DNA of 24,000 bases from Crocinitomicaceae bacterium. Its GTDB lineage: Bacteria; Bacteroidota; Bacteroidia; Flavobacteriales_D; Crocinitomicaceae. Every line of letters starts with the position of its first letter. The stretch's first letter is position 1. Position numbers and translations under genes: made by a program. Shown here piece after piece: positions 10,492-17,486 of this stretch. Where the stretch lies: NCBI GenBank assembly GCA_040403095.1, contig JBBALI010000001.1, positions 150,560 through 174,559 on the forward strand, read 5' to 3'. A model generated the notes under the pieces. It was not told the origin of the DNA. It saw only the letters and a list, made by a program, of their open reading frames with translations, and searched no databases.

Positions 10492-10539
10492 GAAACAAAA
10501 GATTTGGTGTAAAAATAACGAAAATCGCGACTTGATATA

Positions 10540-10555
10540 AAATTCGTTTCACAAA
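10540..10555. promoter_or_regulatory. 16-bp direct repeat copy 1 (AAATTCGTTTCACAAA) in the mrcA/AraC divergent intergenic region
   Basis: Identical to 10645-10660, exactly 105 bp away. Confidence 0.4.
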
Positions 10556-10644
10556 AGAATTAAAAAGGAGTTTTTAATAAACCACAAGGAGTTAAATTAA
10601 ATTTTAAAAGATGAGAATTTAGTTAAAAGTTATTTTTTTGAATT

Positions 10645-10660
10645 AAATTCGTTTCACAAA
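10645..10660. promoter_or_regulatory. 16-bp direct repeat copy 2 (AAATTCGTTTCACAAA), abutting the AraC start codon
   Basis: Identical to 10540-10555. Its last base is the A of the AraC ATG at 10660. Confidence 0.4.
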
Positions 10661-11514
10661 TGGATTATATCTTCAAAAATAAAGACGGTTTTGGGCAGGT
10701 AAGATTATTTTCAAACAAAATAGACTTAGAGCAATATTATTTTGAGCAAAAATCGGGTTTTAGTTTTCATACAATTGCATGGAATAGAGGAAAAAATCAA
10801 ATTATTACAATCGACGAAGTCCAATATCATTTTGAAGAAAACACTGTGCTGCCTCTCATGCTGAATCAGTCTTTTAAGTTTGAAAATCCACAAGATATTG
10901 TTGCTTGGCAATTTAACCAAGAATTTTATTGCATAGCAAATCACGATGCGGAAGTTGGCTGCGTAGGCTTTATATTTTTTGGTCCATCTCCAACCATGTT
11001 TGTTTTTTTGGATGAAGAACAAAAAAGGAAAATGCAAAGTATTTTCGAGTTATTTGAGGAAGAATTTAATTCGGATGAAGATATCAAGGGAGAAATGCTA
11101 AGAATGCTACTTGTTCGACTGATTATTAATATCACAAGACTTGCAAAAAAACAATACCTAGGTAGCGAAGAAGTCGTAGAAGAAAAATTTAATTTAATTC
11201 GTCAATTTAATTTGTTGGTAGAAATTCATTTTAGAAAAGAACATCAAATTGCCTTTTATTCAGACTTATTAAATAAATCCTCAAAAACGATTTCAAATTA
11301 CTTTTCACTATACAGCAGTAAAACACCACTTCAAATAATTCAAAACAGAATCATCAGTGAAGCCAAACGATTATTTTATTATTCTGATAAATCAGTAAAA
11401 GAAATTGCTGATGAATTAGGGTTTGAAGACGCTGCACATTTTAGTAAATTCTTTAAAAAACATACTTCTTTGAGCCCTACTGAGCTTAAAAAAGCTACTC
11501 AAAACCCTATTTAG
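10660..11514 (+). CDS. AraC/XylS-family transcriptional regulator
   Basis: 284 aa. The C-terminal double HTH reads FYSDLLNKSSKTISNYF and IADELGFEDAAHFSKFFKKHTSLSPTELKK. The N-terminal domain is of the ligand-binding type. Confidence 0.85.
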   Translation: MDYIFKNKDGFGQVRLFSNKIDLEQYYFEQKSGFSFHTIAWNRGKNQIITIDEVQYHFEENTVLPLMLNQSFKFENPQDIVAWQFNQEFYCIANHDAEVGCVGFIFFGPSPTMFVFLDEEQKRKMQSIFELFEEEFNSDEDIKGEMLRMLLVRLIINITRLAKKQYLGSEEVVEEKFNLIRQFNLLVEIHFRKEHQIAFYSDLLNKSSKTISNYFSLYSSKTPLQIIQNRIISEAKRLFYYSDKSVKEIADELGFEDAAHFSKFFKKHTSLSPTELKKATQNPI

Positions 11515-11543
11515 GGAACAATCTACACATATTCGGGAACAAT
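11514..11543 (+). promoter_or_regulatory. direct repeat GGGAACAAT x2 with 21-bp period, candidate AraC-type operator
   Basis: GGGAACAAT occurs at 11514-11522 and 11535-11543. A G-rich 9-mer is unlikely by chance in this AT-rich spacer. Located between the AraC stop and the first operon gene. Confidence 0.35.
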
Positions 11544-15148: not shown

Positions 15149-15159
15149 AAATTTAAAAA

Positions 15160-15843
15160 ATGTCAATATTTAAATCAAAGCGCATACTGATAACAGCTGG
15201 ACCGACGCGGGAGGCTATTGATCCCGTTCGATATATCACCAATCATTCAACTGGTAAAATGGGATATGCACTTGCGTCTCATTTATTGAGCTTGGGAGCG
15301 GATGTTCGCGTCGTTTCTGGTCCTGTTTGTTTGAATCATCAATTTCCGAATGATAAAATTATCCAAATAGAATCTGCTGATGACATGCTAGCAGCTATGC
15401 AAAAAATAGCACACGAAGCAGATATTATAATTTTTGCAGCCGCAGTGGCTGATTATAAATGCGAGAAAATCGCTTATCAGAAAATAAAAAAGAAAGACCA
15501 AAGTATGTCAATTAGCCTTGTACCAAATCCTGATATCGCTTTGGAATTATCGAAATCAAAAAAGCAAAATCAAACGTTTATTGGGTTTGCTTTAGAAACT
15601 GAAAACGGTTTAGAAAATGCCAGGTCCAAAATGCAGCGAAAAGGATTTGATAGCATCATTTTAAATATTCACAATGAAAACGGAAGTGGTTTTGGACATG
15701 ACACGAATCGAATTCAAATAATAGACAGTGATTTCTCGATTACTGATTTTCCAATGAAACATAAATCACAAGTTGCCATTGATATAGTCAACCATCTTTC
15801 AAAAAAAATAATGTTTGAATCACTAGATTCAGAAATTGCTTAA
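15160..15843 (+). CDS. coaB: stand-alone CoaB-like phosphopantothenate--cysteine ligase domain protein (no CoaC flavoprotein domain)
   Basis: 227 aa. [50 protein letters not shown] and GFALET align by eye along the whole CoaB half of E. coli CoaBC. Confidence 0.85.
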   Translation: [227 protein letters not shown]

Positions 15844-15855
15844 GCCAAGAATTCC

Positions 15856-16911
15856 ATGGATAAATTAAAAATAAAATTGAAAAGGGCACGAATAAAAACA
15901 TTTAACTGGGAATATTGGCCGATGTGGCTGGTTTATTTTCCTGCTAGTTTTTACTTCTTGTACTTGGCTATAAAAGCGAGAAGTTTTTTCTTTTTCTCAG
16001 CATCCAATCCTACGATTGAAAATGGCGGAATGCTGTTTGAAAGCAAATGGAAAATTTTTAAACTTATCCCAAACGAACTTTTTCCAAACACGATTTACAT
16101 TGAGGAATTTGAAAATTTTGAATCAATAAAGGAAAAAGTCAAAGTAGCGAATCTATTGCTTCCACTAATTGCAAAACCAGACATTGGCGGCAGAGGATTT
16201 GGGGTAAAAAAAATACATTCAATGCTAGAACTTGAAAATTATCGAAACGCAGTAAAAGTGCCGTTTTTAATTCAAGAATGCGTGAATTATCCTTTAGAAT
16301 TAAGTGTTTTCTACTTTCGAAATCCCACGGAAAACAAAGGTCAAATCACTTCGGTAACATTCAAAGAGCTCCTAAATATCACTGGAGATGGTTATTCAAA
16401 AATAATTGATTTGATCAAAAAAAATGACAGGGCTTTTTTACAGTTTGAAAAATTGAAAAATGATCCAAAAATTGACATGAATGAAATCCTTCAAAAGGAT
16501 GAAAACCGGACTTTAGTTCCATACGGAAACCATGTTTTGGGTGCTAAATTTGTAAACTTCAATCATATCATTGACAATGAATTGACTGAAACATTTGATG
16601 CAATTAGTAAGCGAATTGATGGTTTCTATTTTGGAAGATATGACATTAGATGCACCAGTATTGAAGATTTAAAAAAAGGTAAAAACATTTCAATTCTTGA
16701 ATTAAATGGTTCAGGAGCTGAACCTGCGCACATTTACGATCCAAATTTTTCTTATTTCAAAGCACAAAAAGTATTGGCTAACTACTTTAAAAACATGTAC
16801 ATCGCATCTTTTGAAAACCATAAAAAGGGCACTTCATACATGAGCTATAAAGAGTTCAAATTGGTTAGAATACTAGAATCTGAGTATAAAAATAAAATTT
16901 CTCTGACATGA
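15856..16911 (+). CDS. ATP-grasp carboxylate-amine ligase with hydrophobic N-terminal segment
   Basis: 351 aa. The N-terminus is WEYWPMWLVYFPASFYFLYLAI. ATP-grasp signatures are IAKPDIGGRGFGVKKI and ILELNGSGAEPAHIYDP (E-x-N Mg site). The stop overlaps the next start (ATGA at 16908-16911). Confidence 0.7.
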   Translation: MDKLKIKLKRARIKTFNWEYWPMWLVYFPASFYFLYLAIKARSFFFFSASNPTIENGGMLFESKWKIFKLIPNELFPNTIYIEEFENFESIKEKVKVANLLLPLIAKPDIGGRGFGVKKIHSMLELENYRNAVKVPFLIQECVNYPLELSVFYFRNPTENKGQITSVTFKELLNITGDGYSKIIDLIKKNDRAFLQFEKLKNDPKIDMNEILQKDENRTLVPYGNHVLGAKFVNFNHIIDNELTETFDAISKRIDGFYFGRYDIRCTSIEDLKKGKNISILELNGSGAEPAHIYDPNFSYFKAQKVLANYFKNMYIASFENHKKGTSYMSYKEFKLVRILESEYKNKISLT

Positions 16912-17486
16912 TATTTTTTGGAATTTTAATTGGTTTTTATGGGTATTTATTTCCTGGAAACATCAACCTGATGGTGGTCGAAATCTACGCACAAAAAAAA
17001 TACCGTTTTTTAATCTTCACCCTCGTTTTGATTTTGGCGTTTGAAACAATTTATTGCTTGATGTCACTTCTTTTACTTGGAACATTTAAAAGCCACCCAA
17101 GCATTTTCACCTGGATCGAAGTAATTTCCTCATTAATGGTTTCTTTATTGGGGATTTGGATGATTTTTGAAAATAAAAATAACGCGCAAAAATCACAGAG
17201 AAATACGGTAGTTCGCGGAATTTTTTCCATTATTTTTCATCCACAACAAATACCATTTTGGGTAATAATGGGCGTATTTGTAAATCAATTTATTCAACTA
17301 AAAGCAAACAATTGGCCACTTTATCAATTTGCACTTTTAAATGCAGTAGGAACTTTTATCGCAATGGTTTTTTACATGATTTTTGGTTCAAAATTATTCA
17401 ACTATTTGCAATTAAATTTGAATCAAATTAATAAAATAATGGGTTCCATTTACCTTGTGGTTGGGTTTTATGGACTATTTAAATAA
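16908..17486 (+). CDS. LysE/RhtB-like small-molecule exporter
   Basis: 192 aa with about 6 hydrophobic helices. The N-terminal LFPGNINLMVV resembles the LysE-family PGP motif region. Confidence 0.5.
   Translation: MIFFGILIGFYGYLFPGNINLMVVEIYAQKKYRFLIFTLVLILAFETIYCLMSLLLLGTFKSHPSIFTWIEVISSLMVSLLGIWMIFENKNNAQKSQRNTVVRGIFSIIFHPQQIPFWVIMGVFVNQFIQLKANNWPLYQFALLNAVGTFIAMVFYMIFGSKLFNYLQLNLNQINKIMGSIYLVVGFYGLFK

Follow-up and report, generated by a model that had tools for sequence, protein, structure and literature searches.

What is made, and for whom, by an operon that sets secreted and membrane proteins with conserved cysteines in front of cytoplasmic enzymes and an exporter? The question is raised by a stretch of 24,000 nucleotides from a Crocinitomicaceae bacterium of the Bacteroidota (assembly GCA_040403095.1, contig JBBALI010000001.1, positions 150,560 to 174,559 of the forward strand), here called the window and numbered from its first nucleotide, in which nine co-directional genes (11645-17486, plus strand) follow the gene of an AraC-family regulator. 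A first-pass annotation, made from the letters of the window, had described them as a candidate thiol or metallophore system in which envelope metal/redox proteins are joined to a 'CoaB-like/ATP-grasp ligase pair' and an exporter. The reading favoured here, with a probability of about 0.4, sees in them an envelope redox-defence operon of Bacteroidota under stress control, built on a ligase, a hydrolase and an exporter, the chemistry of whose product we infer.

For comparison, 80 genome loci were mapped with the window proteins (tblastn) and all open reading frames (ORFs) in them were clustered. Counts out of 53 refer to the well-covered loci, i.e., those in which 5.5 kb or more precede the ligase gene, and counts out of 74 to the loci with enough downstream DNA.

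Gene order and conservation

The coordinates of the nine genes after the AraC gene were reproduced exactly by an ORF scan, as were the previously listed gaps of 12, 12, 4, 15, 11 and 12 bp and the ATGA stop/start overlaps at 12520-12523 and 16908-16911. The predicted products are, in order, a secreted YHS protein, a DoxX_2 membrane protein, a probable outer-membrane protein, a DM13 lipoprotein, a DinB-fold protein, a TANGO2/NRDE-family hydrolase, a stand-alone CoaB, an ATP-grasp ligase and a LysE-superfamily exporter. The earlier family calls were confirmed by profile matches for YHS, DoxX_2, DM13, TANGO2 and CoaB, and by a structure model for the ATP-grasp protein; the LysE call is supported by profile comparison, the DinB call is weak and that of the outer-membrane protein stays unverified.

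The conserved core of the loci is YHS-DoxX-DinB-TANGO2-ATP-grasp, with LysE following in part of them, and the outer-membrane protein (22/53), DM13 (17/53), AraC (immediately upstream in 21/53) and CoaB genes are accessory. The invariant partners of the ATP-grasp ligase are the TANGO2 protein, present in 46 of the 53 loci and found fused to it, and the YHS protein, present in 44 and often as two tandem copies; the DinB-like gene occurs in 46 and the DoxX gene in 41. Synteny over Chitinophagia, Sphingobacteriia and Cytophagia, together with gene fusions, bears out the proposal that the genes form one functional unit. Co-conservation holds for the core, the order of which recurs in dozens of species, but not for the exact nine-gene set, which was found in no other locus among the 53.

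Typical arrangements are YHS-YHS-207aa-CoaB-DoxX-DinB-fusion-LysE in Pedobacter sp. PAMC26386, YHS-YHS-CoaB-DoxX-DinB-fusion-LysE::Trx in Mucilaginibacter sp. and M. celer, and YHS(-YHS)-DoxX-DinB-fusion-LysE in Chitinophaga filiformis and C. japonensis, where the fusion joins TANGO2 and ATP-grasp (see below) and Trx is thioredoxin. Reduced loci consist of YHS and ligase (L047, L052), YHS-DinB-ligase (L071-L075) or YHS-DoxX-ligase (L079). Four accessory families found elsewhere are not present in the window: a secreted protein of about 206 amino acids (aa), a membrane protein of about 194 aa, an alpha/beta hydrolase and a CMD/AhpD-like protein. The first of these, which gives a weak Autotransporter match, lies between DinB and TANGO2 (L003 6817-7428, L081 9308-9922 and many other loci); the second often overlaps the end of CoaB or replaces CoaB (L003 8184-8768, L081 10683-11267 and many other loci).

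ATP-grasp ligase, gene fusions and exporter

The eighth gene (15856-16911, plus strand) encodes an ATP-grasp protein, predicted to be a membrane-anchored amide ligase, whose family is uncurated and recognizable by the N-terminus WEYWP...SFFFFSASNP. No curated profile was matched at threshold, the sub-threshold scores being 14 bits for Dala_Dala_lig_C, 14 bits for ATP-grasp and 19.5 bits for a CPS-like NCBIfam model. A profile of the family compared with PDB sequences yielded CphA2 (E 4.7e-4) and GshAB (E 6.7e-4), and the structure model computed from 18 homologues (predicted local distance difference test, pLDDT, 87.3; predicted TM-score, pTM, 0.85) gave 313 Foldseek matches in the PDB at E<=1e-3, the foremost being cyanophycin synthetases, the glutathione-synthetase half of GshAB and the D-Ala-D-Ala ligases (Ddl), at E 1e-10 to 1e-7. 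K107 (within AKPD), E148, D263 and E282-x-N284 are kept in at least 95% of 83 sequences; judged by motif position, they are probably nucleotide and Mg2+ ligands as in Ddl and GshAB. The protein is without the usual N-terminal 'pre-ATP-grasp' substrate domain, and its residues 1-60 comprise an amphipathic and a hydrophobic helix (2-16, 22-41) ahead of an invariant SFFFFSASNP-IE-GGM loop.

The family is large, with 3,853 matches in a protein database clustered at 90% and 3,089 representatives at E<=1e-3 in a library clustered at 50%, and the species-representative genomes that encode it number at least 412. The relative that best matches the window ligase (L001) is only 73% identical.

Fusions were surveyed among the best 150 of the 3,089 representatives. 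TANGO2::ATP-grasp fusions were found in P0248, P0250, P0255 and P0261, and a search with P0250 returned 120 or more clusters, about 595 aa in length and named 'NRDE family protein'; Pedobacter, Mucilaginibacter, Chitinophaga and Puia normally have this fused form. In every fusion examined the TANGO2 part is N-terminal and starts with MCTV, a placement that fits the requirement for an N-terminal nucleophile (Ntn). Lys/Arg residues stand at either end of the hydrophobic helix that links the domains, and the helix is therefore read as a probable monotopic or re-entrant anchor and not as a span that would separate the domains across the membrane.

The claimed coupling between a cytoplasmic ligase and an exporter is supported by LysE::ATP-grasp fusions (P0251, P0295, P0351). 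More distant members are fused to VTT/DedA membrane domains (five proteins: P0342, P0364, P0373, P0379, P0386) or, one protein each, to YqcI/YcgG and MORN domains (P0333 and P0275). YqcI/YcgG proteins are haem enzymes that hydroxylate free arginine (PMC12866846), and this fusion points to free amino-acid substrates for the ligase. Taken as a whole, the family appears to have been recruited to several export-coupled small-molecule pathways.

The ninth gene (16908-17486, plus strand) shares the second ATGA overlap with the ligase gene, to which it is thus translationally coupled, and encodes a predicted LysE-superfamily exporter. The window protein has no direct Pfam match, and PF01810 was matched by 4 of 21 close relatives. 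The family aligns at 98.2% probability (hhalign, E 3.9e-14) with exporters encoded in synteny in Sphingobacteriia and Chitinophaga, and these match PF01810 in 5/5 cases with a best E of 5e-12. Assignment to CcdA/DsbD-like electron carriers was considered and rejected, as there is no conserved pair of cysteines and C50 is kept in only 71%. The LysE gene directly follows the ligase gene in 38 of the 74 loci. In two Mucilaginibacter genomes (L088 10785-11879, L090 10785-11882) the exporter continues into an extra transmembrane helix and a thioredoxin domain whose active site reads WCPTC, and in M. celer a further thioredoxin gene, separate from this one, heads the cluster.

Predicted TANGO2-family hydrolase and putative DinB-fold protein

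The sixth gene (14399-15148, plus strand) encodes a predicted TANGO2/NRDE-family Cys-Ntn hydrolase that starts with MCTV and scores 49.3 bits against PF05742 (cut-off 22.6), residues 1-182 aligning with profile positions 1-193. C2, R19, D20 and E21 are kept in at least 95% of 66 sequences. The best PDB matches of its structure model (pLDDT 85.4) are to human TANGO2 (9bwa, 8sv7; Foldseek E 5e-10, TM-score 0.63-0.69), followed by a bacterial homologue, isopenicillin-N acyltransferase and bile-salt/penicillin-V hydrolases. A Cys-Ntn hydrolase activity has been proposed for human TANGO2 in 2026, with the motif residues C2, N25, R26 and D27 and with Asn25 as a proposed catalytic residue (PMC13044924), and the modelled fold of the window protein is consistent with that proposal. 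The human protein has also been reported to bind acyl-CoA (PMC11867700), and vitamin B5 rescues models of TANGO2 deficiency (bioRxiv 10.1101/2022.11.04.514597). The two proteins share the PF05742 match above cut-off, the fold, the N-terminal Cys2 and an RDE motif; they differ in sequence (about 14% identity) and in the motif, which is NRDE in the human and LRDE in the window protein. They differ further in setting, the bacterial gene lying within, or being fused to, a ligase/exporter operon, whereas the human protein is not known to have partners of this kind.

The fifth gene (13883-14383, plus strand) encodes a putative DinB-fold protein, probably a metal-dependent enzyme, which scores 19.5 bits against DinB_2 (PF12867; cut-off 24.8). 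DinB_2 was matched by 13 of 20 orthologues at E<0.01 (best E 1.6e-5). The His/Glu set H40, H43, E124, H125, H128 and H129 is kept in at least 95% of the sequences and C50 in 94%. Single-sequence searches of the PDB with the YHS, DinB and TANGO2 proteins returned noise only.

Envelope proteins

The first gene (11645-12106, plus strand) encodes a secreted protein of a YHS (seleno)protein family (NF041384, 133 bits against a cut-off of 70), with a signal peptide in its sequence. The family includes selenoproteins with a GxU motif (PMC13188914), and Cys93 (GGW-C-AY), the only cysteine of the window protein, occupies the selenocysteine position of that motif. GGW-C93 is kept in 97% of 101 YHS copies, and the selenocysteine-equivalent position is Cys in 95/95 tblastn matches. 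Selenocysteine in the YHS genes of related loci was rejected, the in-frame stops falling in broken or out-of-frame stretches.

The second gene (12119-12523, plus strand) encodes a DoxX_2 membrane protein (PF13564, 35.3 bits against 26.3) with four hydrophobic segments, in which C111 is kept in 89% and H85 in at least 95%. The third (12520-13437, plus strand) encodes a probable outer-membrane beta-barrel protein with a signal peptide and the C-terminus ...LNFNF, which is similar to an aromatic beta-signal; no Pfam family was matched by the window protein or by 18 members of its family. The mature N-terminus QGCSDAGFC (residues 19-27) has a CX5C pattern, the cysteines of which, C21 and C27, are kept in 100% of 29 sequences. 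A homologue in L085 (15761-16693) lies two genes from a Redoxin/AhpC-TSA gene, in the same direction. The fourth gene (13450-13878, plus strand) encodes a DM13-domain lipoprotein (PF10517, 51.4 bits against 25), in which the lipobox Cys19 is kept in 95% and H84, H128-C129 and H134 are invariant.

That the envelope half is a cysteine/redox half, as had been suggested, is corroborated by the YHS cysteine at the selenocysteine site, by the LysE::thioredoxin fusions and by DsbD, thioredoxin, AhpC and CMD neighbours in variant loci.

The stand-alone CoaB

The seventh gene (15160-15843, plus strand) is an accessory gene for a stand-alone CoaB, with 228.8 bits against PF04127 (DFP; cut-off 22) and residues 5-188 covering positions 2-186 of the 186 in the profile. 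Against the bifunctional CoaBC model TIGR00521 it reaches 205.9 bits, below the cut-off of 219.7, and only profile positions 184-391 are aligned; the CoaC flavoprotein domain (PF02441) was not matched in it. Its whole length aligns with PPCS 5int (E 3e-45) and with Escherichia coli CoaB 1u7u (E 1.3e-36). Catalysis by CoaB depends on the Asn of I-N-HS-GKMG (N210 in E. coli), the Lys of KIKK (K289 in E. coli) and the AAVADY motif. In alignment with 1u7u and 5int, the window protein retains every PPCS motif, including QKIKKK. Only two clade-specific columns separate 33 stand-alone proteins from seven CoaB domains of CoaBC or PDB entries, and with the motifs intact a neofunctionalised CoaB was rejected. 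The best 120 relatives are all proteins of 194-265 aa with PF04127 alone, forming a Bacteroidota clade.

Judged by its sequence, the protein looks like an ordinary phosphopantothenate-cysteine ligase paralogue without a decarboxylase partner. It shares the whole CoaB domain of CoaBC (E. coli Dfp, 1u7u; PPCS 5int), KIKK motifs included, but differs from it in having no CoaC domain, in belonging to the 194-265 aa clade and in its neighbours, which in the contexts examined are envelope redox genes and not housekeeping genes.

A stand-alone CoaB occurs in 5 and a CoaBC in 4 of the 53 loci (together 9/53), and one or the other in 3 of 5 Sphingobacteriia/Chitinophaga loci. The placements vary: CoaB lies between TANGO2 and the ligase in the window and in L006, L023, L038 and L055, after LysE in Dyadobacter (L076, L077), and before DoxX in Pedobacter and Mucilaginibacter, and a full CoaBC closes the operon after the ligase in one clade (L011, L035, L036, L043, L054), the 401-aa protein of L035 having both the CoaC and the CoaB domain. 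Stand-alone CoaB genes also lie among YHS, DsbD, thioredoxin, AhpC/TSA and CMD genes at loci without TANGO2 or ligase (L081, L085). Because of these varied placements and redox neighbours, CoaB is regarded as an accessory recurrently tied to the envelope redox set. The 'CoaB-like/ATP-grasp ligase pair' of the first-pass annotation is accordingly not taken for the centre of the system, CoaB or CoaBC being an optional extra.

Regulator, operator and promoter region

The regulator gene (10660-11514, plus strand) encodes an AraC-family protein with an HTH_18 domain (PF12833, 69.3 bits against a cut-off of 33.6). Its sensor half carries the motif C91-x3-H95-x5-C101, in which C91 and C101 are retained by 93% of 29 sequences and H95 by 95% or more. 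Between this gene and the YHS gene lies a putative AraC operator, a direct repeat of GGGAACAAT at 11514-11522 and 11535-11543 (plus strand) with a 21-bp period. The degenerate pattern of the repeat occurs a single time in the window, against 0.08 occurrences expected by chance, and is found at the equivalent intergenic site between araC and the YHS gene in about 19 related loci. The layout fits binding of AraC to the GGGAACAAT repeats and activation of the operon.

Downstream of the repeats follow the palindrome ATCAATTGAT (11560-11569, plus strand) and the conserved box GCATTTTTG (11571-11579, plus strand), a candidate Bacteroidota-type -7 promoter element by its resemblance to the TAnnTTTG consensus. 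The box and the inverted repeat (GCCATC-N6-8-GATGGC in relatives) are co-located in most aligned upstream regions, the repeat standing at the equivalent position in L002, L015, L025, L033, L038, L041, L062 and others. The inverted repeat ATCAATTGAT may be the site of a second regulator or a part of the promoter.

The 'repeat-rich upstream DNA' of the first-pass annotation is thus accounted for by the conserved operator (11514-11543), but not where a 16-nt direct repeat upstream of araC is concerned. The latter repeat, containing AAATTCGTTTCACAAA, lies at 10534-10561 and 10639-10666, 105 nt apart, the second copy extending over the start codon of araC; an autoregulatory site and a small duplication are both possible explanations.

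Loci without AraC often have a pair of genes for an extracytoplasmic function (ECF) sigma factor and an anti-sigma factor beside the cluster instead. In L014 (4362-5234), L021 (4124-4997), L083 (4539-5376) and L087 (4598-5506) the ECF sigma gene is paired with one for a small Cys-containing protein of about 86-100 aa, probably the anti-sigma factor. This suggests that the regulator is swapped between loci while the structural genes stay unchanged.

Proposed function

The working model of an envelope redox-defence operon put forward here builds on the observed order of the genes, their family and fold assignments, their synteny and fusions, the residues that are conserved and the operator motif. 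The ATP-grasp ligase, anchored by its hydrophobic N-terminal helix at the cytoplasmic face of the inner membrane, would join small molecules, most likely of the free amino-acid type, by an amide bond. The TANGO2 cysteine hydrolase would either supply the amine nucleophile, following the logic of amidotransferases, or undo the ligation, following that of synthetase/amidase enzymes, and the DinB-fold metalloenzyme would work on the compound shared by ligase and hydrolase. The product, probably a thiol or thiol conjugate, would be exported by the LysE-type carrier and taken up as envelope redox partner by the secreted YHS protein, with its single cysteine (or, in some relatives, selenocysteine), and the four-helix DoxX protein; in some genomes the DM13 lipoprotein and the CX5C outer-membrane protein may join in. 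AraC, through its Cys-His-Cys motif, would turn the operon on from the direct-repeat operator, and the stand-alone CoaB, where present, may raise the supply of phosphopantothenoylcysteine and CoA or feed a Cys-bearing substrate. The thiol nature of the product, the direction of the TANGO2 reaction, the parts played by YHS and DoxX and the inducing signal are those elements of the model which we infer.

Several observations weigh against this model. No component fixes the substrate specificity, and the chemistry of the system is a prediction. The minimal Chitinophaga operon (YHS-DoxX-DinB-fusion-LysE) is without an obvious thiol-introducing enzyme, so that the word 'thiol' rests on context. The DinB-like protein of the window scores below its family cut-off, and the window TANGO2 reads SLRDE (Leu18) where NRDE is expected, the fused forms reading SNRDE. 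About half of the loci have no LysE next to the ligase, and the VTT/DedA::ATP-grasp fusions could point instead to a lipid-linked or other substrate. There is no CoaBC in the 24-kb window, and the need for CoaC implies that a separate CoaBC would have to be encoded elsewhere in this organism. Finally, the conserved Cys and His residues of the outer-membrane, DM13, DinB, DoxX and AraC proteins would fit thiol/redox chemistry and the binding of thiophilic metals equally well.

Alternative explanations

The last point leads to defence against, or trafficking of, a thiophilic metal or metalloid (Cu, Hg, Cd, Se/Te), with YHS, DM13, the outer-membrane protein and AraC as metal-binding proteins and the ligase/exporter pair as the source of a chelator, i.e., a metallophore or a detoxifying ligand. 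This is considered unlikely, although it has several observations on its side. The YHS superfamily is metal-associated, the Pfam match being weak (TRASH/YHS, PF04945, 22.3 bits against a cut-off of 30.3); Cys/His motifs are kept in DM13 (H84, H128-C129, H134), the outer-membrane protein (C21, C27) and AraC (C91-x3-H95-x5-C101); selenoproteins of the YHS family are listed beside selenocysteine-containing mercury and cation-ATPase proteins (PMC13188914); and some ligase relatives are fused to VTT/DedA membrane domains. The window YHS protein, however, has no cysteine at the TRASH ligand positions, none being present in residues 48-88 (…GITYYFSSQKYKDFF…), and its sole cysteine is the selenocysteine equivalent. 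DM13 and the outer-membrane protein are moreover accessory, P-type ATPase, CopZ, MerR/ArsR and other recognized metal-resistance genes were not found within the window, and in variant loci the companion genes encode enzymes of thiol-disulfide and peroxide chemistry (DsbD, thioredoxin, AhpC, CMD). The metallophore option of the first-pass annotation is thereby weakened on the side of YHS and keeps the conserved motifs of AraC, DM13 and the outer-membrane protein in its favour.

Mycothiol (MST/Mca) and bacillithiol (BstA/Bca) detoxification combine a DinB-fold S-transferase with an amidase and export. By analogy, the DinB protein might conjugate an electrophile or toxin to a cellular thiol (bacillithiol, CoA, cysteine), the TANGO2 protein serving as trimming amidase, LysE exporting the Cys S-conjugate and the ATP-grasp enzyme rebuilding the thiol carrier. 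Such a mercapturate-like route recovers the logic of those pathways: the DinB-like gene overlaps or precedes the TANGO2 gene, TANGO2 has an amide-hydrolase fold, the exporter gene is directly next, and alpha/beta hydrolase, DJ-1/PfpI and FMN-reductase genes are among the neighbours in variant loci. It is nevertheless rather improbable. The secreted YHS/DoxX half, which is invariant, is left unexplained; hydrolase and exporter are fused to a ligase and not to a transferase; and DinB, itself a weak assignment, is absent from L047, L052 and L079, which keep YHS and ATP-grasp. MST/Mca and BstA/Bca resemble the operon in a DinB-fold enzyme, putative here, an amide hydrolase and product export, but use LmbE-type deacetylases in place of a TANGO2/Ntn protein, and the ligase and secreted redox proteins are integral only here.

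A further idea is that TANGO2 and the fused ATP-grasp enzyme make, repair or recycle a pantothenate- or cysteine-derived thiol for export to the envelope, the candidates being phosphopantothenoylcysteine, phosphopantetheine or a new acyl-Cys-X compound. This is given a small probability. A smaller one still is given to salvage or repair of the thiol end of CoA or pantetheine, in which TANGO2 would cleave a damaged (over-oxidized, alkylated) pantetheine-type amide, CoaB and/or the ATP-grasp enzyme would re-ligate cysteine or cysteamine, and the waste would be exported. Several independent placements of CoaB or CoaBC within the cluster, the acyl-CoA binding of human TANGO2 and the vitamin B5 rescue cited above are in line with such repair. 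Against CoA repair, CoaB or CoaBC occurs in only 9/53 loci and is absent from the two Chitinophaga loci, and some CoaB genes sit with YHS and redox genes without TANGO2 or ligase (L081, L085), which makes the envelope redox set the steadier partner of CoaB.

Chance juxtaposition of unrelated functions, with CoaB as a housekeeping gene of the CoA pathway, would agree with the exact nine-gene order being found in 0/53 loci and with CoaB motifs indistinguishable from those of bona fide PPCS, but is very hard to reconcile with a core order kept in Chitinophagia, Sphingobacteriia and Cytophagia, three kinds of gene fusion linking the components, start/stop overlaps, an operator before the first gene, and a large clade of CoaB-only proteins (194-265 aa) without the CoaC domain needed in CoA synthesis.

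Comparison with known systems

None of the ten proteins matched a signature enzyme of the GshA/B, BshABC, MshA-D or EgtA-E pathways in NCBIfam or Pfam at E<=0.01, and the nine-gene operon is therefore not assigned to any of the pathways for glutathione, bacillithiol, mycothiol or ergothioneine. Its closest functional analogues are GspSA, the Ntn amidotransferases, GshAB with thiol export, and the DoxX and RclR oxidant defences, in the sense of shared logic and not of membership.

GspSA, the glutathionylspermidine synthetase/amidase of E. coli, joins an N-terminal Cys amidase to a C-terminal ATP-grasp-type ligase and acts on a thiol conjugate, the amidase cysteine rendering the balance redox-sensitive. 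The TANGO2::ATP-grasp fusions match it in domain order and logic. Its amidase fold is however CHAP and not Ntn/TANGO2, no sequence relation is detectable, and GspSA is soluble, without exporter, YHS/DoxX partners or dedicated regulator. In class II (Ntn) glutamine amidotransferases such as asparagine synthetase B, a Cys2 Ntn domain feeds a nucleophile to a C-terminal ATP-dependent domain that activates a carboxylate. The Ntn domain with Cys2 stands at the extreme N-terminus, as TANGO2 does in the fusions, but the partner is an adenylating PP-loop synthetase, whereas ATP-grasp enzymes proceed by acyl-phosphate chemistry, and the nearer relations of TANGO2 are isopenicillin-N acyltransferase and bile-salt hydrolases, not GATase domains.

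Export of small thiols to periplasmic redox proteins is established (CydDC, the cysteine/cystine shuttle); the exporter here is of the LysE type and not an ABC transporter as in glutathione/cysteine export systems. GshAB/GshF (3ln6), the ATP-grasp module of which adds an amino acid to the carboxylate of cysteine, is among the best matches in sequence and fold, with similarity at the superfamily level only (E about 7e-4, TM-score about 0.43). The window ligase has the hydrophobic helix and SFFFFSASNP loop in place of an N-terminal substrate domain, and has no GshA-like partner.

The mycobacterial DoxX-SseA-SodA membrane oxidoreductase complex ties DoxX to thiol homeostasis and oxidant defence, and RclR, an AraC-family activator controlling the RclABC regulon of E. 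coli, senses reactive chlorine through cysteines. The window AraC, with its Cys-His-Cys motif, may be comparable to RclR in this respect. The operon differs from both systems in having no rhodanese, superoxide dismutase or RclA-type flavoprotein, and they in turn are without YHS, DinB, TANGO2, ATP-grasp and LysE.

The supposition that no described pathway has this composition agrees with a literature search, in which no description of the cluster was found and nothing on TANGO2 with ATP-grasp, on 'NRDE family protein' or on YHS with DoxX and DinB. It is a widely conserved Bacteroidota operon that is apparently new to the literature.

Operon boundaries and neighbouring DNA

The nine-gene block is regarded as a discrete unit because it is bordered upstream by housekeeping genes on the opposite strand (phosphoglycerate kinase, GT2 glycosyltransferase, CoA-transferase subunits, class A penicillin-binding protein) and downstream by an MntA/HepT toxin-antitoxin pair. 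An internal terminator had been said to be missing. Three weak terminator-like sites do lie on the plus strand, all of them within ORFs, and the total for the scanned region is at chance level (5 found against 4.8 +/- 2.2 expected from shuffled sequence). A canonical terminator after the LysE-like gene was not found (fold z-score -1.1), and no RNA family was matched in an Rfam scan of the whole window.

The pair of MntA (nucleotidyltransferase) and HepT (HEPN RNase) genes, at 17611-18241 on the strand of the operon, adjoins it with no recognizable terminator between. Positions 17257-17905 recur in part at 18739-19385 as a tandem duplication (period 1482 bp; 99% and 92% identity) that spans the last 230 nt or so of the LysE-like gene, the intergenic region and mntA; in the second copy mntA is split, leaving short ORFs at 19093-19248 and 19217-19399. 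Either a genuine rearrangement scar or an assembly artefact could account for the duplication. Within 19383-21507 and 22623-23852 lie ORFs of 546, 165, 279 and 126 aa without a Pfam family, the one of 546 aa beginning inside the end of the duplicated segment. Upstream on the minus strand (4753-7921), the genes of the CoA-transferase subunits (7223-7921 and 4753-5412) flank one for a 626-aa membrane protein (5416-7296) with a weak PMT_2 match, which overlaps the upstream subunit gene by 74 nt.

Implications

The ligase family, with about 3,000 clusters at 50% identity, is without a curated profile, and the cluster around it repeatedly recruits the cysteine-adding step of CoA synthesis. Bacterial TANGO2 gains a biochemical context, being paired with, and often fused to, a predicted ATP-dependent amide ligase, with an exporter next in about half of the loci. 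Since the fusion is found in cultivable strains of Pedobacter, Mucilaginibacter and Chitinophaga, the question of the TANGO2 substrate is directly testable. If the product were indeed a pantothenate- or cysteine-derived thiol, the operon would represent a Bacteroidota pathway for a low-molecular-weight thiol or cofactor that is new, for which there is a modest chance, and would provide the first enzymatic substrate class for TANGO2, the loss of which causes a human metabolic disease that vitamin B5 eases. For the Bacteroidota themselves, the findings suggest a possible route by which reducing or chelating small molecules may be delivered to single-Cys or selenocysteine YHS proteins and DoxX in the cell envelope.

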